A stretch of DNA of 64,000 bases from Minisyncoccota bacterium. Lineage in GTDB: Bacteria > Patescibacteriota > Minisyncoccia > Phycocordibacterales > UBA12079. The stretch spans positions 27,861 through 91,860 of the forward strand of contig JAGLLX010000001.1 of NCBI GenBank assembly GCA_023140255.1. Direction: 5' to 3'. The notes beneath the pieces are model-generated. The model was not told where the DNA came from, ran no database searches, and worked only from the letters and a program-made list of their open reading frames with translations. The position numbers were made by a program, and so were the translations under genes. The number at the start of each line of letters is the position of its first letter. Positions within the stretch are counted from its first letter, which is position 1. Positions 3,241-62,389 of the stretch are shown here, piece after piece.

Positions 3241-3828
3241 TTAAACGAACACTACCCACACAAGTAAAGCTACAATTAAAAGAGTTATGTAATTAAAATA
3301 TTTAAAAGCATAATGAGCCATTTGTTTTCCAAATAATTTTACTAAATAACCCACAATAAAGAATCTTAAACCTCTTCCAATTAAAGAAGCTCCAAAAAAA
3401 GTTAAAATATTTATGTGAAAAAAACCTGCTGAAAGTGTAAAAACCTTAAATGGAATTGGAGTAAAAGCTGAAATGAAAATAGCCCAGAAAGCGTTCTCTT
3501 GAAATAAAGTAGAAACAACCACCATTTGAGTCTGAAGGTTATAGGTATTAATCAAAAACTCCCCTACTAAATCAAAAAAGAAAAACCCAAAAACATAACC
3601 TAAGAGACCACCTAGAACAGAAGCAATTGTAGTTAAGAAAGAATAATATATCCACTTAGATCCATTATTTATTAAAATAGCTAATAAGAAAATATCTGGT
3701 GGAATAATAAAAAAAGAGGCTTCTGTAAATGAAAAAATAGCTAACCATAATTTAGCATTTTCTCCGTGAGAGTGATTGTATGACCAATCTTTCAAAGACT
3801 GCTTAGCTTTATTTAAATATTTAATCAT
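3241..3828 (-). CDS. DedA/SNARE-associated family membrane protein
   Basis: Polytopic protein; FFIIPPDIFLLA-type DedA motif. Confidence 0.5.
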   Translation of the reverse strand: MIKYLNKAKQSLKDWSYNHSHGENAKLWLAIFSFTEASFFIIPPDIFLLAILINNGSKWIYYSFLTTIASVLGGLLGYVFGFFFFDLVGEFLINTYNLQTQMVVVSTLFQENAFWAIFISAFTPIPFKVFTLSAGFFHINILTFFGASLIGRGLRFFIVGYLVKLFGKQMAHYAFKYFNYITLLIVALLVWVVFV

Positions 3829-4255
3829 TATTTTGTTTCTCTAAAAATCTATTTAAAATCAAAGCAGCCGCAGAAGCATCATTTTTCTGTAATTTAACTT
3901 TAGCATGGATCCTATCTTTTTTTCTAATATTTCTTAAATTTTCTCCTTGAATTCTATCAGCTTCTGCACTAGTTAAAAACTCTGGTTCTAAATGTATTGG
4001 TATTTTAACACTTTTTTCTAAGGCTCGCTTAAATTCCAAAATCTTTTTTTGGATAAGGTTGTCTTCTCCGTTTAAATTTTTTGACTCCCCTATTACAATC
4101 ATCTCAATTCTATCTTCTTCACATATTTTCAAAATATTTTCTAAAAGTTTTTTATCATTATCTAAAACTATTTTAGCAAAAGCTAAATTTCCTTCATCAT
4201 CAGAGACGGCGATCCCAATATTTTTTCCCCCATAATCAATTCCTAAATATTTCAT
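3821..4255 (-). CDS. ruvX: Holliday junction resolvase-like protein RuvX/YqgF
   Basis: MKYLGIDYGGKNIGIAVSD N-terminus typical of YqgF. Confidence 0.8.
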   Translation of the reverse strand: MKYLGIDYGGKNIGIAVSDDEGNLAFAKIVLDNDKKLLENILKICEEDRIEMIVIGESKNLNGEDNLIQKKILEFKRALEKSVKIPIHLEPEFLTSAEADRIQGENLRNIRKKDRIHAKVKLQKNDASAAALILNRFLEKQNND

Positions 4256-4752
4256 ACTATTTTACTTAATATAAATTCTAATGAGCCCTCTATCTTTTTA
4301 TTATTATTTAAAATAATCTCATCTTCAATTTCTATTTCTATTATTTCCTTTTCTAATTTTTCAAAATCTACTTTAGTATTTTTTATTTTTCGTTCTCTAC
4401 TTTCTTCAATCTCTAAAAGTTTTTCTATATCTCTTTCAATAAAAAAGCTTTTTATATTAATATTATTTTCCTTACAAAACTCTTTTATTTTATCTACTAA
4501 ATTTTTATCGTTAAAAAGTTCTTCAGTTATGATTCTTTTGTTTCCATTTTCAAACAACTCTTTAATTTTTTCAAAAATTTTTATATAAGAATACTGATAC
4601 ATCTCTTTATTTTCAAAACTAGAATTACTTTTCATAAACTCTCTTTTAAAAAAATCTCCAAAAACTACAGGAGCATCTAATCGCCCACCTAATTTTTCAG
4701 CTATAGTTGATTTACCACAACCAGGTAAACCTCTCAAAATAATTAACTCCAT
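4252..4752 (-). CDS. P-loop NTPase/kinase (AAA_33-like)
   Basis: Walker A GLPGCGKST at the N-terminus; overlaps neighbouring genes by 4 nt (operon). Confidence 0.5.
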   Translation of the reverse strand: MELIILRGLPGCGKSTIAEKLGGRLDAPVVFGDFFKREFMKSNSSFENKEMYQYSYIKIFEKIKELFENGNKRIITEELFNDKNLVDKIKEFCKENNINIKSFFIERDIEKLLEIEESRERKIKNTKVDFEKLEKEIIEIEIEDEIILNNNKKIEGSLEFILSKIV

Positions 4753-4782
4753 ACTTTCTATTCTACCATAATTTAAAACCTT

Positions 4783-5361
4783 CTACTTTTGAATATAAAC
4801 CAAATACTCTTTATTTTTACCCTTTTGACCTAAAATTGGAGATTCTATTATTTCAGAAAAATTTAATCCCAATTCTACAAAATCTTTTTTAATTTTATCA
4901 ATAACCTCCATTAAAAATTCTTCAGGAACCTTTCCTTTTTTTAATAAAGCCTTGTCTATTTCGTAATGCGGTTTTATTAAAGAAATTATCTCCCCTTTAT
5001 CCTTTAATAAAGACAAGGCTTTAGGAATTATTAATCTTTGAGGAGTCCAACTTACATCAATAGAAATAAAATCAACTTTCTCTGGTAATTCTACATGAAG
5101 CGCGTTAACCCCTCCAAGAAATTCAACTCTTTCGTCCTCTTTTATTTTCCATTCTAGAATATTTTTACCAGTATCAACTGAATAAACTTTTTTAGCTCCA
5201 TTTTGTAATAGACAATCAGTAAAACCTCCAACACTGCAACCTAAATCAGCACAAATTTTTCCCTCAACATTTATATTAAATTTTTCCAAAGCAAATTTAA
5301 GTTTCTCTCCTCCTCTAGAAACAAATTCTGGTATCTTTATATTATCTAAAAATTTATTCAT
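4783..5361 (-). CDS. tlyA: TlyA-family rRNA 2'-O-methyltransferase (FtsJ-like, no S4 domain)
   Basis: SRGGEKL ... DLGCSVGGFTD SAM-MTase motifs. Confidence 0.7.
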   Translation of the reverse strand: MNKFLDNIKIPEFVSRGGEKLKFALEKFNINVEGKICADLGCSVGGFTDCLLQNGAKKVYSVDTGKNILEWKIKEDERVEFLGGVNALHVELPEKVDFISIDVSWTPQRLIIPKALSLLKDKGEIISLIKPHYEIDKALLKKGKVPEEFLMEVIDKIKKDFVELGLNFSEIIESPILGQKGKNKEYLVYIQK

Positions 5362-5480
5362 TCCGTTAGAGCTACTTTATTAAAAGTATCTCTAACGGGA
5401 CAAGTCCCTTACTTTTAATAAATATCTTTAAAATTAAATTAGTAATTTTTAACCCCGCCAAATCTCTAACGGGATTCATC
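5362..5480. repeat. Structured repeat/leader element (CCGTTAGAG / CTCTAACGG family), copy A
   Basis: Outer stem CCGTTAGAG...CTCTAACGG encloses inner hairpin TACTTTATTAAAAGTA, then GGGACAAGTCCC and a second CTCTAACGGGA. About 90% identical to 11780..11900. Confidence 0.55.
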
Positions 5481-6647
5481 TTAAAAAACCAAAAGATTTG
5501 GAGCTATTAAAAGCAAAACTCCAAGTATAATCATCAACACACCTCCTATTAAAGAAGATAAGTTTGAATACTTCTGCCCTACTGCATAAAATTTACTAAA
5601 ACCATACAAAGCTAACCCTAAGATTAAAAAATCATCAATCATATATGAAAAAGTGTACAAGAAAATATAAAATTGTTCAGTTAATAAACTGAGATTATTT
5701 AATTCTAAGATTTTAGTGAAAGCCTGAGGAATTCCGATAGAACAAGCAAACTCAATAATATTTACAGAAAAAGCTACTCCAATTATTCCTATAGCAGTTA
5801 AAATACTCATTGGTTTATTTACTAAATTTCGGATTTTTCCTTCTGTTTTAGATTGTTTTTCTAAATCAGTATCACATACTAATTTCCCACGATTCTTCCA
5901 ATACCTATACACAAAATAAATCCCTGAACTTATCGCCAACACCCCAATCGCAGGAGTTATAATTTGATCTAAACCAATAAAATCCCAAGTTCTAAACCAA
6001 AAATTTAAAATTACCCAGTACATTACAGCTTCAGCAAAAATAAACAATCCCGCTACTTGAAACATTTTTTTCTTGTCTTTAATCTGCCATAAAATCAATA
6101 AAAAAGTCATCAATACCCACATAGCACAAGGATTAAAACCATCAACTAGACCTAAAGTAAAAGATAAAGAAAAAAGAGAAAAGTCCTTTAAATTTACAAT
6201 TCCAATAAAAGGTAATTTAAACTCAAAACTTTGTTCTGGGTTAATGTTAATTTGAGGATCTTGATTAATTAAATTATTATTTTTATCAATTAAAGCAATT
6301 ATTTGCTTACCTGTTATCTCATCAGAAGCAAAACCTTGAAAAATATCTTGTCCTATTATAGTGGTTGGTGTAACTTTTGGTAAATTATATTTTTCAGTTA
6401 TAAAATCAAATTGCTGTTTATTCCCTTCCTGAAGCACATCAACTATTATTAAATTAAAATCATCTCGTTCTTGAATTAAATTTTCAAAAAAAACTAGTTC
6501 TTTAGTACAATGAGAACAACCCTCTCTTTCAAAAAGATAAATATCTACTTTATTAACCTCTTTAACTTGAATATCTTCTGCTTTAGAAACTTGAGGTAGA
6601 AAGAAAACCTGAATCAAAAACAATCCTAAAAATATCTTTTTTATCAT
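5481..6647 (-). CDS. Secreted thioredoxin-fold (CxxC) domain fused to a polytopic membrane domain with conserved Cys (DsbD/CcdA-like thiol-disulfide oxidoreductase)
   Basis: Signal peptide; EREGCSHCTKE CxxC; membrane domain with GFNPCAMW and EFACSIG cysteines. Confidence 0.45.
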   Translation of the reverse strand: MIKKIFLGLFLIQVFFLPQVSKAEDIQVKEVNKVDIYLFEREGCSHCTKELVFFENLIQERDDFNLIIVDVLQEGNKQQFDFITEKYNLPKVTPTTIIGQDIFQGFASDEITGKQIIALIDKNNNLINQDPQININPEQSFEFKLPFIGIVNLKDFSLFSLSFTLGLVDGFNPCAMWVLMTFLLILWQIKDKKKMFQVAGLFIFAEAVMYWVILNFWFRTWDFIGLDQIITPAIGVLAISSGIYFVYRYWKNRGKLVCDTDLEKQSKTEGKIRNLVNKPMSILTAIGIIGVAFSVNIIEFACSIGIPQAFTKILELNNLSLLTEQFYIFLYTFSYMIDDFLILGLALYGFSKFYAVGQKYSNLSSLIGGVLMIILGVLLLIAPNLLVF

Positions 6648-10349: not shown

Positions 10350-11309
10350 ATGGATGACGCTGCAAAATCAATACTTTTTATATTACTAGGTTTAGGATTA
10401 TTTTGGTTTATTACCGGTGGTCTTAATCGTATGGAAGAAGGTATGTTTATAACTCCCCCAACTTTTGAAAAACCAAGTGAAGTTTATGGAGAAGTTCCTT
10501 CTTTTTGGGATTTCTTAAAAAGACCTGCTTCTGAACAAAATCTTTCCCCTGAAGAAAAACTTCAATTAGAAATAGAGCAAGCTAAAAAAGAAGCTGATCA
10601 AATAGAATATGATTTAGAAAAAATTAAAGAATTAGAAGATACATCTATTTATAAAAACAAAATAGAAATTAGTAGAAGTTACGGATCTCGTTCTAATGTA
10701 AACGAAGAATATATTAAATTAAAAGTAAATAATCTTGGTGGAGAAAAATTACAAATTTCTGACTGGACATTAAAAAGTAAAATGACTGGACAAGAAATTT
10801 CTTTAGGAAAAGTAGTTAAATTACCTTATACCTCACAAAATAATTACCTTCAAACTCTTTTTGTTTCTGGAGGTGAAGAAATAATTGTAATGAGTGGAAG
10901 ATCTCCAATCGGTTTTTCTTTTCAGATTAATAAATGTTCAGGATATTTAGAACAATTCCAAGATTTTGAACCAAGAATATCTAAAAATTGTCCTTTAATT
11001 GAAGATGAAAATTTACCGATTATAGGACCAAATGCTTTTAATGACGCTTGTTTAGATTTTATTGATGATATCTCTAGATGCGAAACACCTTTAAATTACC
11101 CTCTAGATATGCAAGGTGAATGTAGGAATTATTTAATAACAAATGCCAATCATAATACTTGTATAACTAATTATAAAAATGATTCTAATTTTTATAAAGC
11201 AGAATGGAGAATTTTCTTAAATAGAACACAAGAGTTGTGGAAAAAAGATAGAGAGATTATTGAATTACGAGATAACCAAGGTAAATTGGTTGATTCTTAT
11301 TCTTATTAA
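10350..11309 (+). CDS. Membrane-anchored protein with lamin-tail-domain (LTD)-like region
   Basis: N-terminal TM; coiled-coil; EEYIKLKVNNLGGEKLQISDWTLKS resembles the LTD signature. Confidence 0.45.
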   Translation: MDDAAKSILFILLGLGLFWFITGGLNRMEEGMFITPPTFEKPSEVYGEVPSFWDFLKRPASEQNLSPEEKLQLEIEQAKKEADQIEYDLEKIKELEDTSIYKNKIEISRSYGSRSNVNEEYIKLKVNNLGGEKLQISDWTLKSKMTGQEISLGKVVKLPYTSQNNYLQTLFVSGGEEIIVMSGRSPIGFSFQINKCSGYLEQFQDFEPRISKNCPLIEDENLPIIGPNAFNDACLDFIDDISRCETPLNYPLDMQGECRNYLITNANHNTCITNYKNDSNFYKAEWRIFLNRTQELWKKDREIIELRDNQGKLVDSYSY

Positions 11310-11779
11310 ATATTCAAAATTCTAAATAAAGCAATTCCTGTCGTTACAGAAACATTCAAAGATTCTTTATTTCCTTTCATTGGGATTTCTGCAATTTTAT
11401 CGCACTTCTGAAGAAGTTGTTTTGAAATTCCCTTTACCTCATTACCTACTATAAAAGCAGTGGATTTTTTTATTTTGATTTTTTTATAATCAATAGATTT
11501 TTTATCTTGTTCTATTCCAATTATTTCTACCCCTTCTTTTTTTAATTTATCAATTATTTTATTTGGCTGAGAAAAATATTCCCATTCAATATCTTTTTCT
11601 GCTCCAAGAGCTGTTTTTGAAATAGCTGAAACTTCCCTTCCAAATCTATCTATTGGTTTTGGTGTATAACCACTTAAAAATATTTTTGAAATACCACAAG
11701 CGTCTGCAGTTCTAAAAATAGAACCTACATTTTGAGCACTTCTAATGTTATGTAAAATAAGATAATATTTTTGTTTCAT
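11306..11779 (-). CDS. SpoU/TrmH-family RNA 2'-O-methyltransferase (TrmL-like)
   Basis: NVGSIFRTADACG ... VGNEVKGIS motifs. Confidence 0.75.
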   Translation of the reverse strand: MKQKYYLILHNIRSAQNVGSIFRTADACGISKIFLSGYTPKPIDRFGREVSAISKTALGAEKDIEWEYFSQPNKIIDKLKKEGVEIIGIEQDKKSIDYKKIKIKKSTAFIVGNEVKGISKQLLQKCDKIAEIPMKGNKESLNVSVTTGIALFRILNI

Positions 11780-11900
11780 CCTGTTAGAGATACTTTATTA
11801 AAAGTCTTTCTAACGGGACAAATCCCTTACTTTTAATAAATATCTTTAAATTAAATTATTAATCTTTTTCCCGCCAGATCTCTAACGGGATTCATTTTTT
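11780..11900. repeat. Structured repeat/leader element (CCGTTAGAG family), copy B
   Basis: About 90% identical to 5362..5480; same position immediately 5' of a minus-strand RNA methyltransferase start codon. Confidence 0.55.
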
Positions 11901-11956
11901 TAGTATAAAAAAATAGTGCGAGTTTTACAACCCGCACTATATACTAACACCTCTTT

Positions 11957-55446: not shown

Positions 55447-55631
55447 GGGTAAAATAGTGTATTTATGAGATATTTGATGGAATCTGATTTAACCTCCGAG
55501 GAAGGAGTTCTGCCGTTAGAAGTAAAAAACCAAAGGTTTTTGTCAGTTTTAACGGTAGATTTTATTGTTAAATAAATAACAACAAAAGATTAAATCTAAC
55601 TCCTTATCTCATAAATACACTATTTTACCGA
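55447..55631. mobile_element. MITE-like element with perfect 25-bp terminal inverted repeats
   Basis: GGTAAAATAGTGTATTTATGAGATA ... TATCTCATAAATACACTATTTTACC; the interior carries a CCGTTAGAAG...TTTTAACGG hairpin of the CCGTTAGAG family. Confidence 0.55.
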
Positions 55632-55723
55632 TATAATTCTATGAATTCACTAATTTTTTTAAATTAACGAATTCAATAGAATGGGTAAAGTGTTTGTTCT
55701 AAACACCTTACCCAGATGAGAAG

Positions 55724-56101
55724 TTACTCTTTAGGATTAAGAGCATCCTTCACTGCTCGGGCAAGGCCGGTATTGTATTGGCCTTTGTTTACTCGAGCAG
55801 CACCTTCAAAGGTTTTCCCGTTAATGGTTACGATTGTAACATCAACTTGGCGACCTCTGAAAGCTGAATCATTTTTCCCGAATCTGTCACGGAAGTTAAC
55901 TGCGACATTTTCGAAACCTTTTTCTTTAAGAAGCCCAAAAATCTGGAGCTTCTCAATTTTCGGAGGATCAAATGATCTGTAGTCCCATGAGAATTCAACA
56001 TTCTCTAGGCAGATACAGCTTTCTTCTGCATTTGCAGGTATAGTTGAAATAACAACTAACATTACCAAAACTACCAAAAAACTACCGATTAATTTCTTCA
56101 T
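55724..56101 (-). CDS. Small secreted protein (island gene A)
   Basis: Signal peptide MKKLIGSFLVVLVMLVVISTIPANA; GGAG SD; GC-elevated. Confidence 0.45.
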   Translation of the reverse strand: MKKLIGSFLVVLVMLVVISTIPANAEESCICLENVEFSWDYRSFDPPKIEKLQIFGLLKEKGFENVAVNFRDRFGKNDSAFRGRQVDVTIVTINGKTFEGAARVNKGQYNTGLARAVKDALNPKE

Positions 56102-56217
56102 CTTCTTTCTCCTTTCTCGGAATTTCCGAGATCTAGTTTTGTTATTATAACGTTAAGTTGATAGATTACTACCGCAAAACAAATAACGATAACGATAGTT
56201 AAGTATGCGATTTGCAT
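56098..56217 (-). CDS. Unannotated 39-aa single-TM peptide (island), translationally coupled to gene A
   Basis: Hand translation MQIAYLTIVIVICFAVVIYQLNVIITKLDLGNSEKGERR; SD AAAGGAGG; stop overlaps ATG of gene A (ATGA). Confidence 0.35.
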   Translation of the reverse strand: MQIAYLTIVIVICFAVVIYQLNVIITKLDLGNSEKGERR

Positions 56218-56252
56218 GATACCTTCCTCCTTTCTCGGAATCTCCGAGATAT

Positions 56253-56423
56253 GTAAACTTTATTTAAAGAACATCTACTATGAAACTTCAAACACTTTGT
56301 TTAAAATTTCAATAATAGGCTGGAGTGAGTATTTTTCAATAAACACTCCAGCGAACTTTGAACACTAAGTTTTTTGTCTAGGACTGGGGAACTTGGAAAC
56401 CTTTTTATTATTTAAGAACAACT
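56253..56423. repeat. Promoter/leader repeat module, copy 1
   Basis: Contains hairpin CTGGAGTG...CACTCCAG; on the minus strand TTGAAA-N16-TATTAT; palindrome GAAACTTCAAACACTTTGTTTAAAATTTC. About 99% identical to copy 3. Confidence 0.6.
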
Positions 56424-56810
56424 TCAGTCATAATCATGTCTGGTAGTGAAGAGCCTTGTTGCCTCAGTTTTGTTTTTTACAGAAATTGGTATATTACCAT
56501 CAATATACCACTGAGAGTGGTTAAATCTCTCAATAAATTCTTTCGTGCCTTTTTGCGGAGCTTCACAAGAATTTGTACACTTCTTGGAACAACCTTCGCA
56601 CATTTTTGTTGCTTCAAGCTGGCTTTTGATGTAGTCGAGGACTTTCTCGGCTTTTTCGGTGAGGTTGTCTTGAATAGTAGATGGATAATATATACATATC
56701 TCTATCCCATTCCCCCAGTTTAAATCTATTTGATATACACCATCTACCGACTGAATCAATGTATTGCTACATTGATTTGGAATTGGTATTTCAAATCCTC
56801 TTGTACTCAT
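56424..56810 (-). CDS. Small cysteine-rich protein (island gene B)
   Basis: 128 aa, CEGCSKKCTNSC cluster; SD GGAGAGGAG preceded by hairpin TCCGACAATGTCGGA. Confidence 0.45.
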   Translation of the reverse strand: MSTRGFEIPIPNQCSNTLIQSVDGVYQIDLNWGNGIEICIYYPSTIQDNLTEKAEKVLDYIKSQLEATKMCEGCSKKCTNSCEAPQKGTKEFIERFNHSQWYIDGNIPISVKNKTEATRLFTTRHDYD

Positions 56811-56845
56811 CTCTTTCTCCTCTCCGACATTGTCGGAATTTAAGT

Positions 56846-57022
56846 TATTTTCCCAAAAAACTTATATATTCAAATTTATTTAAAGAACTACTATGAAACT
56901 TCAAACACTTTGTTTAAAGTTTCAATAATAGGGGTGAGATACTTGCAAACTAAACAAGTCTCACCCTTTTGAACATTAAAGCTTTTTGATACCCAGAAGC
57001 TTTGGAGAACTTGGAAACCTTT
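56846..57022. repeat. Promoter/leader repeat module, copy 2 (diverged)
   Basis: Same block order as copy 1; hairpin stem replaced by GGGTGAGA...TCTCACCC (compensatory). Confidence 0.6.
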
Positions 57023-57274
57023 TTAAAGGTTAAGACTTTCTGTAAAATTGGAGTAATCACTCCAATCACAAGAACAACAGGACCGTTTTATTTGATACCT
57101 TCGGACCTGCACCCTTTTGTAAGGATAATTTGCCACGTAATTTCTTACGTGAACAATTTCCTTTGTTAATAGTATTTGTTCCTTTCTGACCCACCCCTCA
57201 CATTCAGGGCAGATATTTTTTGAAAGAGCCTCTTCTCTTAGGGCTTTTTCCAGTCTTTCCTTTGTATCATTCAT
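57023..57274 (-). CDS. Small zinc-ribbon-like protein (island gene C)
   Basis: 83 aa; CPEC ... CCSC; start overlaps end of gene D. Confidence 0.45.
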   Translation of the reverse strand: MNDTKERLEKALREEALSKNICPECEGWVRKEQILLTKEIVHVRNYVANYPYKRVQVRRYQIKRSCCSCDWSDYSNFTESLNL

Positions 57275-57452
57275 CTTCTCCTCCTTGTTTTATATATAAC
57301 TTCATTGTCAAAATATATGTTTGCCAGATTGGACAGCAGTTTTTATCGCAATAGACTTGAGTTGAAGCAGCTGCTCCCCTGTTTCCAGTTACAGTGAGAC
57401 CACATCCATCTCCTTTTTGAAATTGACACCTTAACTCGTTATTATTACTCAT
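57267..57452 (-). CDS. Small cysteine-rich peptide (island gene D, 61 aa from MSNNN)
   Basis: Start re-set to the Met preceded by SD GAAAGGAGACGGGG; 5 Cys; the C-terminus encodes the SD for gene C. Confidence 0.4.
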   Translation of the reverse strand: MSNNNELRCQFQKGDGCGLTVTGNRGAAASTQVYCDKNCCPIWQTYILTMKLYIKQGGEDE

Positions 57453-57492
57453 TCCCCGTCTCCTTTCTCGACATCGTCGAGATCTAGTATAT

Positions 57493-57647
57493 AAAACTTT
57501 ATTTAAAGAACATCTACTATGAAACTTCAAACACTTTGTTTAAAATTTCAATAATAGGCTGGAGTGAGTATTTTTCAATAAACACTCCAGCGAACTTTGA
57601 ACACCAAGTTTTTATACTAAGGCAGAAAACTTGGAAACCTTTCTATC
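57493..57647. repeat. Promoter/leader repeat module, copy 3
   Basis: About 125 bp essentially identical to copy 1. Confidence 0.6.
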
Positions 57648-58118
57648 TTATTTCAGACAGCGGATAGACAGGCCTAATTGTTTTCCACTTTTGCCTTGGG
57701 TACCCTTACAATTCAAATCAGTAATATCTCTCCTGTTAGCCCAAGCAAGATCTTCATTTATAGAAGAAGATGACCAGAAAAAAGCAGTATAATAAAAATT
57801 GAGAAGGTTGACGTAACCGTAAGAGAAACGTACTCCTGCAAAAAATAAGTTGGGGATACTTTCCCTACCCTTTTCTCCAAGGATAGACCATTCTTCAACA
57901 GTCGGTATCTGCTTTCCAGCTTTTTTGGTTTCTCGTATTGCAGCAGAAAAGGTAAATAATTGTTGGCCTGCAGTATTATATACCCCAGTACCACCAACAT
58001 ACTCCCAAATATCCTTTTCAGGATTTTGGAGATAAACAACTCCGTTATTGTCGGTAAATTGTTCCCAACCACTAGAGTCAACCTTGAAATTTTCGTTTTC
58101 CAGCTGAAGATTACTCAT
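57648..58118 (-). CDS. FISUMP-domain protein (Fibrobacter succinogenes major paralogous domain)
   Basis: ...IPTVEEWSIL..., AGVRFSYGYVNLLNFYYTAFFWSSSS, GLSIRCLK C-terminus; SD GGGGAAGGAG preceded by hairpin CCCGATGATTTCGGG. Confidence 0.55.
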   Translation of the reverse strand: MSNLQLENENFKVDSSGWEQFTDNNGVVYLQNPEKDIWEYVGGTGVYNTAGQQLFTFSAAIRETKKAGKQIPTVEEWSILGEKGRESIPNLFFAGVRFSYGYVNLLNFYYTAFFWSSSSINEDLAWANRRDITDLNCKGTQGKSGKQLGLSIRCLK

Positions 58119-58279
58119 TTCCCTTCTCCTTCCCCGAAATCATCGGGTTAGTTTAAAATTGACAACAAAAAGAAAATTATTCCCAAAAAACTTGATATTT
58201 AATTGTAAAGAACATCTTTTTCTCTTTATTAAGAGAGTGGAAAATACGAAACTTCATATTTTTTTCTCTCTAAACAAAA

Positions 58280-58323
58280 AATTGGTCGTTTAATTCTTTC
58301 GGAAAAGAATTAAACGACCAATT
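58280..58323. terminator. 20-bp-stem hairpin bounding the island
   Basis: AATTGGTCGTTTAATTCTTT-CGGA-AAAGAATTAAACGACCAATT with T-run on the minus-strand side. Confidence 0.5.
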
Positions 58324-58354
58324 TCTGATCTTTTAAACTCCTTCCTCAAAAAGC

Positions 58355-58472
58355 TTGTCCTGTTAGAGGTAAGAAACTGAAAATTTCTGTAAGCTCTAAT
58401 AGGATTTTTTATTTATCCCGTTAGAAGTAAAAAATCGTAGATTTTCGTCAGTTCTAATGGGATTTAGTTTTT
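58355..58472. repeat. Two tandem hairpin units of the CCGTTAGAG family
   Basis: CCTGTTAGAGG...CTCTAATAGGA and CCCGTTAGAAG...TTCTAATGGGA; the second is about 80% identical to the MITE interior at 55525..55575. Confidence 0.45.
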
Positions 58473-58700: not shown

Positions 58701-59594
58701 ATGAAAGGTTTAAAACAATTAAAAAATGAGTTTCTGGAATATCTAGAGATTGAAAAAGGGCGAAGTCTTAAAACTGTTGAGAATTATGATCGCTACTTAA
58801 GTCGTTTTTTGGGTTATCTAGAATCAGACTTCCCTTCTGCTATTACTGATGAAAAAATGAGAAAGTATCGTTTATGGTTAAATCGTCAACCAACTGGAAA
58901 TAATTCAGAAACATTAAAAAAGAGAACTCAGAATTATTATTTAATCGCTTTACGAGGTTTTTTAAAATATTTAGTCAAAAGAGAAATAAAATCTTTTGCT
59001 CCAGAAAAAATAGAACTAGCTAAAGTCGGAGAAAGGTCTTTAGATTTAATTTCGGCAGAAGAATTAAAAAGATTATTAAATATATCAAAAGGAAAAGATT
59101 TAAAAGATTTAAGAGACAAAGCTATTTTAGAATTACTCTATTCTACAGGATTAAGAGTTTCAGAATTATGTGCTTTAAATTCTGATATTGATTTAAGAAA
59201 AGATGAAATGTCAGTTCGCGGAAAAGGAGATAAGGTACGAGTGGTTTTCTTTTCTCATTCAGCCAAAAAAGCAATTAAAGAATATCTTGATGCAAGAAAA
59301 GATATGGACGAAGCTTTGTTTACTTCATTGAGTAAAGATAAAGCTAGTCGTTTAACTACAAGGTCTGTGGAGAGATTAGTTAAACAATTAGCCATTAAAG
59401 CTGGGATTACAAAGAAGGTTACTCCCCATATTATTAGGCATTCCTTCGCTACTGACTTGTTAGAGAATGGGGCTGATTTAAGATCAGTGCAAATGATGTT
59501 GGGTCATTCTGATATCTCTACTACTCAAATTTATACCCATATGACAGATAAACATTTAAAAGATATACATAAAAAATTTCATAATAAGAAATAA
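58701..59594 (+). CDS. xerC: Tyrosine recombinase XerC/XerD family
   Basis: N-terminal SAM-like domain; catalytic R..HxxR..Y (HIIRHSFAT ... TQIYTH). Confidence 0.85.
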   Translation: MKGLKQLKNEFLEYLEIEKGRSLKTVENYDRYLSRFLGYLESDFPSAITDEKMRKYRLWLNRQPTGNNSETLKKRTQNYYLIALRGFLKYLVKREIKSFAPEKIELAKVGERSLDLISAEELKRLLNISKGKDLKDLRDKAILELLYSTGLRVSELCALNSDIDLRKDEMSVRGKGDKVRVVFFSHSAKKAIKEYLDARKDMDEALFTSLSKDKASRLTTRSVERLVKQLAIKAGITKKVTPHIIRHSFATDLLENGADLRSVQMMLGHSDISTTQIYTHMTDKHLKDIHKKFHNKK

Positions 59595-62197: not shown

Positions 62198-62268
62198 GCG
62201 GGTATAGTTTAGTGGTAGAACAACTGCCTTCCAAGCAGTAAACGAGAGTTCGATTCTCTCTACCCGCA
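62198..62268 (+). tRNA. tRNA-Gly (anticodon TCC)
   Basis: GCGGGTATAGTTTAGTGGTAGAAC... ; anticodon loop CTTCCAA. Confidence 0.85.
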
Positions 62269-62321
62269 CAAAATACTTAAAAATACCCAGAAAGATACAT
62301 AGTATTTTCGCAAGGTATTTT

Positions 62322-62389
62322 TAGTGGTAGAACAACTGCCTTCCAAGCAGTAAACGAGAGTTCGATTCTCTCTACCCGCACAAAATACA
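62322..62389 (+). repeat. 5'-truncated duplicate of tRNA-Gly(TCC) (positions about 13-73 + 3' flank)
   Basis: 68-bp identity to 62210..62277, including downstream CAAAATAC. Confidence 0.6.

Follow-up and report, generated by a model that had tools for sequence, protein, structure and literature searches.

A widespread Patescibacteria repeat family with the features of MITEs and a probable capacity to rebuild start codons on insertion

Two related elements upstream of RNA methyltransferase genes

The window analysed here is a stretch of 64,000 nucleotides from the ENA metagenome ZHAN22-2, with a G+C content of 28% and with proteins that are named 'Candidatus Pacebacteria bacterium' by NCBI. 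Two RNA methyltransferase genes on its minus strand are each directly preceded by a copy of the same short element. The gene downstream of copy A (4783-5361) encodes a TlyA-like protein with an FtsJ domain (Pfam E=6e-30), and the gene downstream of copy B (11306-11779) encodes a member of the SpoU/TrmH family (SpoU_methylase, E=5.7e-36). These Pfam matches agree with a first-pass annotation made from the sequence, in which both copies had been placed immediately before the ATG of a minus-strand gene for an RNA methyltransferase. The name tlyA used there is apt for the methyltransferase domain, but not for the protein as a whole. An S4 RNA-binding domain at the N terminus is typical of TlyA, and this domain is absent from the 192-aa product, which consists of the FtsJ domain alone; the same is true of the orthologue in the locus L011.

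Copy A spans 5361-5474 (114 bp) and copy B spans 11779-11890 (112 bp), both on the minus strand, and the terminal A of each element (5361 and 11779, respectively) is also the A of the ATG of the adjoining gene. The duplication of an element of about 120 bp, as initially proposed, is real: the two copies are 88% identical in a MAFFT alignment of about 120 nt of the minus strand containing three small indels, and 90% identical over an ungapped 81 nt; a count over 115 aligned bases gives 104 in common. The architecture is also shared. In the direction of the gene, ATGAA is followed by T-CCCGTTAGAG (motif 1), a small GGCGGG hairpin, an AT-rich spacer and GGGAYTTGTCCC, and the gene-proximal part then consists of CCCGTTAGAR (motif 2), an inner stem-loop, CTCTAACGG-A and TGAA. 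This arrangement, in which an outer left repeat and an AT-rich spacer are joined to a complete inner hairpin that supplies the right end, is termed the 'complex' form. In copy A, motif 1 (T-CCCGTTAGAG) occupies 5474-5464 and is followed by a local hairpin with GGCGGGG, the AT-rich spacer and GGGACTTGTCCC, and the inner hairpin, CCCGTTAGAG-TACTTT-TAAT-AAAGTA-CTCTAACGGA, occupies 5399-5362. With at most one mismatch allowed, CCCGTTAGAG occurs eight times in the window, against an expectation of 1.0.

The palindromes that had been listed earlier (CCGTTAGAG/CTCTAACGG, TACTTT..AAAGTA and GGGACAAGTCCC) are all present, and two details of that description require correction. The difference between GGGACAAGTCCC and GGGACAAATCCC, taken for a compensatory change, is one substitution and not a double change, and it falls either in a tetraloop or at one C:G pair that becomes a U.G wobble on the sense strand. 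The 'second CTCTAACGGGA', which had been placed near the start codon, is actually gene-distal (5464-5474), where a duplicated ATGAA and the stop of the preceding ORF adjoin it.

Both copies are flanked by TGAA, which reads ATGAA with the preceding A. At copy A, the gene-proximal TGAA (5357-5360, minus strand) contributes the TG that completes the start codon with the terminal A of the element, and the gene-distal TGAA (5475-5478, minus strand) forms, with the A at 5479, what would be the original ATGAA. This distal ATGAA lies 1 nt past the TAA stop (5483-5481) of an upstream 388-aa ORF. At copy B, the corresponding minus-strand duplications are found at 11775-11778 and 11891-11894, with the distal ATG at 11895-11893. 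Upstream of copy B on the minus strand (11902-11940), a terminator-like hairpin (11940-11913) overlaps a promoter-like TTGTAA-17-TATACT (11930-11902). Only 6 nt separate the end of the -10 hexamer TATACT from the distal ATG, so that the putative pre-insertion start is of the leaderless type, and TATACT-aaaaaa-ATGAA is kept upstream of spoU in the loci L144 and L146.

A repeat family across Patescibacteria

The terminal inverted repeats T-CCCGTTAGAR/YTCTAACGGG-A are found in copies A and B and in more than 150 other units. Members of the family are hairpin-forming units that begin and end as T-CCCGTTAGAR...YTCTAACGGG-A, with terminal inverted repeats of 11-14 bp. A scan of one genome per species with the pattern TCCCGTTAGAG-N50-80-GTCCCGTTAGA returned 18 loci, at least 15 of them in MAGs labelled as Patescibacteria or one of its groups. 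The labels include Campbellbacteria (with a complete genome), Jorgensenbacteria, Paceibacterota, 'Saccharibacteria' and Parcubacteria, and there is one Omnitrophica MAG. A metagenome scan for the inner hairpin (GTCCCGTTAGA-N15-45-TCTAACGGGA) detected at least 120 stretches, and a viral scan detected one. The locus L007, from a Draconibacterium MAG (5672-5910), was excluded as a chance pattern match; it is CRISPR-like and unrelated to the repeat family, consisting of an array with a 74-bp period, repeats of about 47 nt and spacers of about 27 nt. The MAG that contains L008 and L011 (CAZAKQ010000019.1) is labelled 'Candidatus Saccharibacteria' and yet shares synteny with the window, the nucleotide identity being about 80%. 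Given the Pacebacteria label of the window, one of these two taxonomic labels is probably wrong.

Family members range in size from 31 to 306 bp and contain no conserved ORF. Their interiors are entirely different between lineages, whereas ends and flanks are alike, and no conserved core beyond the 10-nt repeat ends was identified among the sequences compared across lineages. A small three-motif subfamily of 49-94 bp, with an extra inner motif, is found in L035, L039, L049 and L085. Of 20 elements from the genome scan, 19 lie directly on the ATG of a real ORF. A simple unit in L120 (4191-4235) lies inside a 23S rRNA gene, for which the Rfam LSU match (3748-6231) covers 2484 nt over model positions 1-1854, implying about 630 nt of insertions in the rRNA. 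In L050, units at 242-302, 1105-1165 and 2157-2216 lie within the N-terminal coding region of repeated genes for LamG-like or pilin-like secreted proteins, and because these ORFs read through the units (...NNLGLAPLEARAMSAADASRRLASNG...), some copies may be translated.

The first-pass annotation had offered two readings of the window copies, a SAM/SAH-related leader shared by the two genes and a REP/MITE-like repeat that had landed in both 5' regions. The second has stood, in the form of a MITE, and the first has not. A SAM/SAH-responsive cis-regulatory RNA specific to methyltransferases, duplicated with the two genes or recruited by them, would be in keeping with the position of both copies before genes for SAM-dependent enzymes of the RNA 2'-O-methyltransferase type, and with the folding of both strands of both copies, which is significantly better than that of shuffled sequences (z = -3.8 to -4.5). 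However, the Rfam scan that had been suggested as a check gave nothing relevant, at the gathering score for the whole window or at E<=1 for the two copies, for any family including all SAM and SAH classes, chance hairpin matches aside. The host genes in other genomes, at least 15 of them, are functionally unrelated. Among their products are a GalU-like nucleotidyltransferase, an FtsX-type permease, an SDR, an M16 peptidase, SSB, RecG, the ribosomal proteins L23 (rplW) and L4 (rplD), PheT, a CCA-adding enzyme, MurC and PilM, so that the element preceding the methyltransferase genes is the same as that preceding murC, ssb, recG, pheT, rplD and rplW. One spoU orthologue has no element, and the divergent interiors share no core apart from the repeat ends. 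A methyltransferase-specific leader is therefore scarcely credible, and that both host genes in the window encode RNA methyltransferases is chance.

Two further identities were considered and rejected. In an integron attC site the order is RYYYAAC...GTTRRRY, the reverse of the GTTAGAR...YTCTAAC that is read here on both strands. As a DNA uptake sequence, the motif would be far too sparse, with 11 copies in 64 kb that are clustered at three places.

Target-site duplication and the rebuilt start codon

The 4-mers directly outside the T...A ends are identical in 46 of 96 non-redundant simple units, compared with 2 of 96 for the next 4-mers out, which served as a control, and in another 15 of the 96 they match at three of four positions. 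The base pair outside CCCG...CGGG is T..A in 84 of the 96 simple units and C..G in 10, making it an 11th, covarying pair of the inverted repeat. Perfect duplications, from simple and complex elements together, are of the form Y..R in 78 of 78 cases; the middle favours K and then M, position -1 is enriched in A and position +1 in T, and a|YKMR|t is the resulting consensus of the target. Because a single flanking base on one side was fixed by the search pattern, the composition of the duplications in this sample is biased, but not their existence. Duplications that escape the fixed-base constraint are still all T...A, and the Y..R preference is therefore real. In complex elements the flanks covary as well, with ATGGA on both sides in L017 and [G/A]TTTA (duplication TTTA) in L013, and in L020 ATGAG occurs three times around two tandem elements.

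These duplications bear directly on the type of mobility. Repeats mobilised as single strands by HUH/Y1 enzymes, either REP/REPIN sequences with a RAYT or IS200/IS605 derivatives, might stand beside a fixed ATGAA in the absence of any true duplication, and the hairpin-forming units, the asymmetric complex forms, the fixed orientation relative to the gene and the ATGAA that flanks most complex copies would all be consistent with such an origin. REP/REPIN sequences are also short extragenic palindromes that are often paired or clustered and highly conserved within a lineage. However, the 4-mer varies among copies (CTCG, CTCA, CTAA, CCCA, TTTA and others) and is the same on both sides of each, which indicates a duplication and not a fixed target. 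REP/REPIN sequences have no target-site duplication, and IS200/IS605 derivatives insert 3' of a fixed tetra- or pentanucleotide and have dissimilar ends, whereas the present ends are symmetric inverted repeats and not two hairpins of the same sense. The head of the element is TCCCG, unlike the GTAG head of REP sequences, and no Y1 transposase gene recurs near the units in the about 0.8 Mb of loci compared. Single-strand mobilisation is accordingly a very improbable origin for the family.

Insertion with a 4-bp duplication offers a simple account of the placement at start codons. The targets A|TGAA|T and A|TGAG|T contain ATG, and whenever an element with its final A enters TGNN, ATGNN is formed anew at the right junction. 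Copies A and B would both have inserted into the TGAA of an ATGAA start, an event that would leave the original ATGAA about 118 bp upstream of the gene and rebuild an intact ATGAA directly before it. The repeat would thus abut the ATG of two genes because its terminal A and the duplicated TG rebuild ATGAA.

Mobility and classification

Comparison of orthologous sites supports past movement. In L148/L149, the start of the spoU orthologue (79% protein identity) is an empty site, with one ATGAA and no element, although a HicA gene lies upstream there and the neighbourhood is not strictly collinear. In L144/L145 (92%) and L146 (84%), spoU has a shorter, single-hairpin simple element at the identical position, where the window has the complex form. 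At tlyA, the window and the syntenic L011, in which the flanks are 80% identical at the nucleotide level, both have an element, and the genome that includes L008 and L011 has two evidently recent copies, at tlyA and at an SDR gene, that are identical to each other. Tandem elements, two or three at one start codon and each separated by a duplicated ATGAR, were observed in L006, L020, L104, L107 and L132; such tandem insertions are expected if each insertion recreates its own target.

The family thus combines terminal inverted repeats, a target-site duplication, small non-coding units in many copies and a presence/absence polymorphism at the spoU start, all of which are features of MITEs. Both window copies are, very probably, non-autonomous DNA transposons of this type, belonging to a family that has spread widely among the Patescibacteria (the candidate phyla radiation) and that rebuilds the ATG at insertion. 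A REP/MITE-like repeat in both 5' regions was one of the initial suggestions, and it gains support from the inverted repeats, the 4-bp duplication and the copy number; dozens of copies scattered irrespective of gene function had been named as favouring it, and the genome and metagenome scans point to hundreds, indifferent to gene function. The class of element is an ordinary one, with an unusual property, the exact regeneration of start codons across many Patescibacteria lineages, that is well supported. Elements at start codons would persist because the gene is not destroyed and possibly also because they have been co-opted as 5' leaders. No description of this repeat family was found in the searchable literature, either by motif or among accounts of MITEs in candidate-phyla-radiation, Patescibacteria or Saccharibacteria genomes.

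The enzyme responsible was sought in the element-bearing loci. No transposase was enclosed by pairs of ends 0.3-6 kb apart with matching 4-mers, and no autonomous IS partner with the same ends was seen among them, only separate neighbouring units. There was also no recurring neighbour protein family: when all ORFs of 180 aa or more in these loci (about 0.8 Mb) were clustered, housekeeping families alone emerged. In the window, a gene for an Xer-like tyrosine recombinase (58701-59594) is near three simple units, two of them at a distance of 240 bp, and homologues of it are present in only two of about 140 loci. Mobilisation would most plausibly occur in trans, by a cut-and-paste transposase of the DDE type; such an enzyme is suggested by the inverted repeats, the short duplication and the palindromic target preference, though none was found in these loci.

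This classification removes a false lead, as the repeat is not a methyltransferase riboswitch, and scans for structured RNA in Patescibacteria intergenic regions will keep meeting it. Assemblies as well as start-codon calls are affected, since contigs break within the element, as those of the source organism do in L002 and L004. The family also provides a tractable handle on translation start in uncultivated bacteria and on a DNA-moving enzyme in transposase-poor genomes.

Placement, conservation and a possible leader role

Start-codon placement is more frequent in complex elements with intact duplications (22 of 26) than in simple ones (10 of 42), and TGAA duplications were found 20 times at start codons and three times elsewhere. 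Orientation is fixed for each subfamily: the 8 window-type and the 10 '90/x/15'-type elements without exception have the inner hairpin on the side of the gene, and in the other subfamilies it is gene-distal. The elements are also far better preserved than synonymous sites. The tlyA copies in the window and L011 are 91% identical (104 of 114 bases) whereas four-fold sites are 62% identical, and the spoU copies in L144 and L146 are likewise 91% identical, compared with 63% at four-fold sites. The host genes at the tlyA and spoU sites are 90-96% identical at codon positions 1 and 2, a sign of purifying selection, and must therefore still be expressed. Placement, orientation and 91% identity together imply that simple transposition is overlaid by selection, by homogenisation or by strand-specific targeting. 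The family, whose 10-nt ends are the same in many lineages, has been kept at orthologous starts through speciation, in minimal and apparently leaderless genomes.

Judged from the regions upstream of its ORFs, the genome represented by the window seems to be predominantly leaderless. Of its 45 ORFs with 150 aa or more, 23 have a -10-like hexamer whose end lies 3-11 nt upstream of the first ATG, whereas a Shine-Dalgarno-like motif is present in only 5. A similar hexamer lies just upstream of the distal ATG in 25 of 54 start-codon elements, versus 5 of 54 in a control window, and because this -10 lies upstream of the distal ATG, the element separates promoter from gene. In several of the small three-motif elements, GGAGG or GGGAGG (read by eye) is located about 12 nt before the rebuilt ATG, and insertion would there turn a leaderless start into a Shine-Dalgarno-led one.

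In the window-type subfamily, an alternative helix may form on the minus strand (5378-5420), in which TATTAAAAGTA (5420-5410) pairs with TACTTTTAATA (5388-5378). The GGGACTTGTCCC mini-hairpin (5408-5397) lies within this helix, which cannot form at the same time as the inner hairpin. Its pairing is kept through two double changes and two A-U to G.U changes, the latter compatible with pairing on the sense strand only, in a comparison of five sequences in which 26 of 500 shuffles do equally well.

It is possible, if somewhat doubtful, that the element is now a domesticated leader, one that arrived by transposition and has since become a functional 5' leader; this would add to the MITE reading and would not replace it. 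The transcript would begin at the old distal AUG, and the hairpins would either allow Shine-Dalgarno-independent initiation at the rebuilt AUG or be cut off, for example by an RNase III-type enzyme acting at the base of the inverted-repeat stem, giving a leaderless mRNA; the mutually exclusive helices would modulate the outcome. The excess identity of orthologous copies over four-fold sites at tlyA and spoU, the continued expression of the host genes, the leaderless character of the genome, the -10 hexamers before distal ATGs, the gene-proximal orientation in 18 of 18 elements from two subfamilies, the retained helix with its sense-strand-only G.U changes and the Shine-Dalgarno-like motifs in three-motif elements are all consistent with such a role. 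However, high identity could also result from gene conversion or from re-insertion of a master copy, as the identical copies in L008 and L011 illustrate, and the covariation comes from few sequences and is matched by some shuffles. The interior sequence is wholly different between lineages, and the loss of an element from a start codon may simply be difficult to achieve with the gene left alive. The overall pattern of conservation and placement fits co-option as a leader, and also fits within-genome homogenisation combined with a start-codon insert that is hard to delete.

A more specific proposal is that these MITEs, beyond being tolerated, are targeted to the +1/ATG of leaderless genes or selectively retained there, in a phylum in which Shine-Dalgarno sequences are largely missing. 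In a transcript beginning at the old AUG, the folded stem would act as an RNA signal that is cleaved at its base, restoring a leaderless mRNA, or that gives ribosomes access to the rebuilt AUG. This is unlikely, but if true, such a mobile and self-compensating 5' leader would represent gene control of a new kind in the candidate phyla radiation.

Several other modes of action were considered and rejected. A leader peptide from the distal ATG would have 34 codons in copy A, and indels break it to 14 in copy B and 12 in L011; the frame from this ATG to the motif also differs in L006 and L014. Termination-reinitiation coupling would require the stop of the small ORF to lie near the real ATG, which is the case only in copy A, and an in-frame read-through fusion is precluded by the length of element plus duplication (118 bp) and by the stops that it contains. 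Nothing indicates that a promoter carried by the element yields leaderless mRNA from the proximal ATG, as there is no -10-like hexamer in ...YTCTAACGGG-ATG. A weak promoter-like sequence, TTGTCC-18-TAAAGT, can be discerned in copy A and is not conserved in L018-type copies.

Comparison with known mobile elements

The nearest functional analogues of the family are the Correia-type MITEs. The Neisseria Correia elements (CREE/NEMIS), like the present family, are non-coding, multi-copy sequences of about 50-200 bp with inverted repeats and a short, sequence-preferring duplication, and they too are often found just upstream of genes and co-transcribed as stem-loops. Correia elements can supply promoters and are RNase III substrates, properties which suggest how the present elements might act. 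However, Correia elements have a TA duplication and inverted repeats of about 26 bp and are confined to Neisseria, whereas the present family has ends of 11-14 bp, a 4-bp YKMR duplication and a distribution across many Patescibacteria lineages. The present family also differs in that its terminal A rebuilds the start codon, in that the element lies exactly at the ATG and in that no IS partner is known.

Insertion sequences of the IS5 type and their MITE derivatives produce 4-bp duplications at YTAR-like targets. The present family resembles them in the length of the duplication, the palindromic pyrimidine...purine target and the symmetric inverted repeats, but the middle of its target is K-M and not T-A, and no transposase with these ends, of the IS5 type or any other, was found in the element-bearing loci. 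The Rickettsia palindromic elements and the 'byp' elements of Magnusiomyces mitochondria are likewise mobile hairpins at or in coding sequence that do not inactivate the gene, and the matched take-off and landing codons that flank a byp are comparable to the duplicated ATGAA around the present insert. The present elements, in contrast, lie at the start codon and not inside the frame; copy A with its duplication is 118 bp, which is not a multiple of three, and contains stops, and no evidence of bypassing was seen.

Shorter relatives and neighbouring features in the window

Three simple units, each a 47-bp hairpin with ends of the same type, were identified in the window in addition to the two complex copies. 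The unit at 58416-58462 (47 bp), T-CCCGTTAGAAG...GTTCTAATGGG-A, is flanked by a perfect 4-bp duplication, TTTA (58412-58415 and 58463-58466). The unit at 58358-58404, T-CCTGTTAGAGG...GCTCTAATAGG-A, has degenerate ends and no intact duplication (CTTG versus TTTT). The third, a degenerate unit at 55511-55557, T-GCCGTTAGAAG...TTTTAACGGT-A, is 81% identical to the 58416 unit and also has no intact duplication.

Between these units lies a G+C-richer island (55560-58350; 33-35% versus 28% for the window) that adjoins the recombinase gene at 58701-59594. On the minus strand it contains five small ORFs (83-156 aa) that exceed the gathering cutoff of no Pfam family, each followed by a near-identical module of about 120 nt that resembles a terminator hairpin plus promoter. 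The modules at 56255-56374 and 57494-57613 are 99% identical, and a partial one is present at 56883-56932. A hairpin and an AAGGAG ribosome-binding site are located upstream of each ORF (56108-56137, 56226-56255 and 57459-57488). Simple units of the repeat family mark the borders of the island, its neighbour encodes a divergently oriented tyrosine recombinase of the Xer/integrase type, and it may be an integrated mobile element. An integron cassette array was considered for the recombinase and the small ORFs at 55.6-58.3 kb and was rejected, since the 120-nt repeats look like terminator, promoter and ribosome-binding-site modules; the island does not look like an integron. Further along the window, two tandem tRNA genes (62198-62268 and 62310-62380) have 75-nt segments that are 97% identical, and one of the two has a much lower score against the tRNA model than the other (42.8 versus 77.9 bits).
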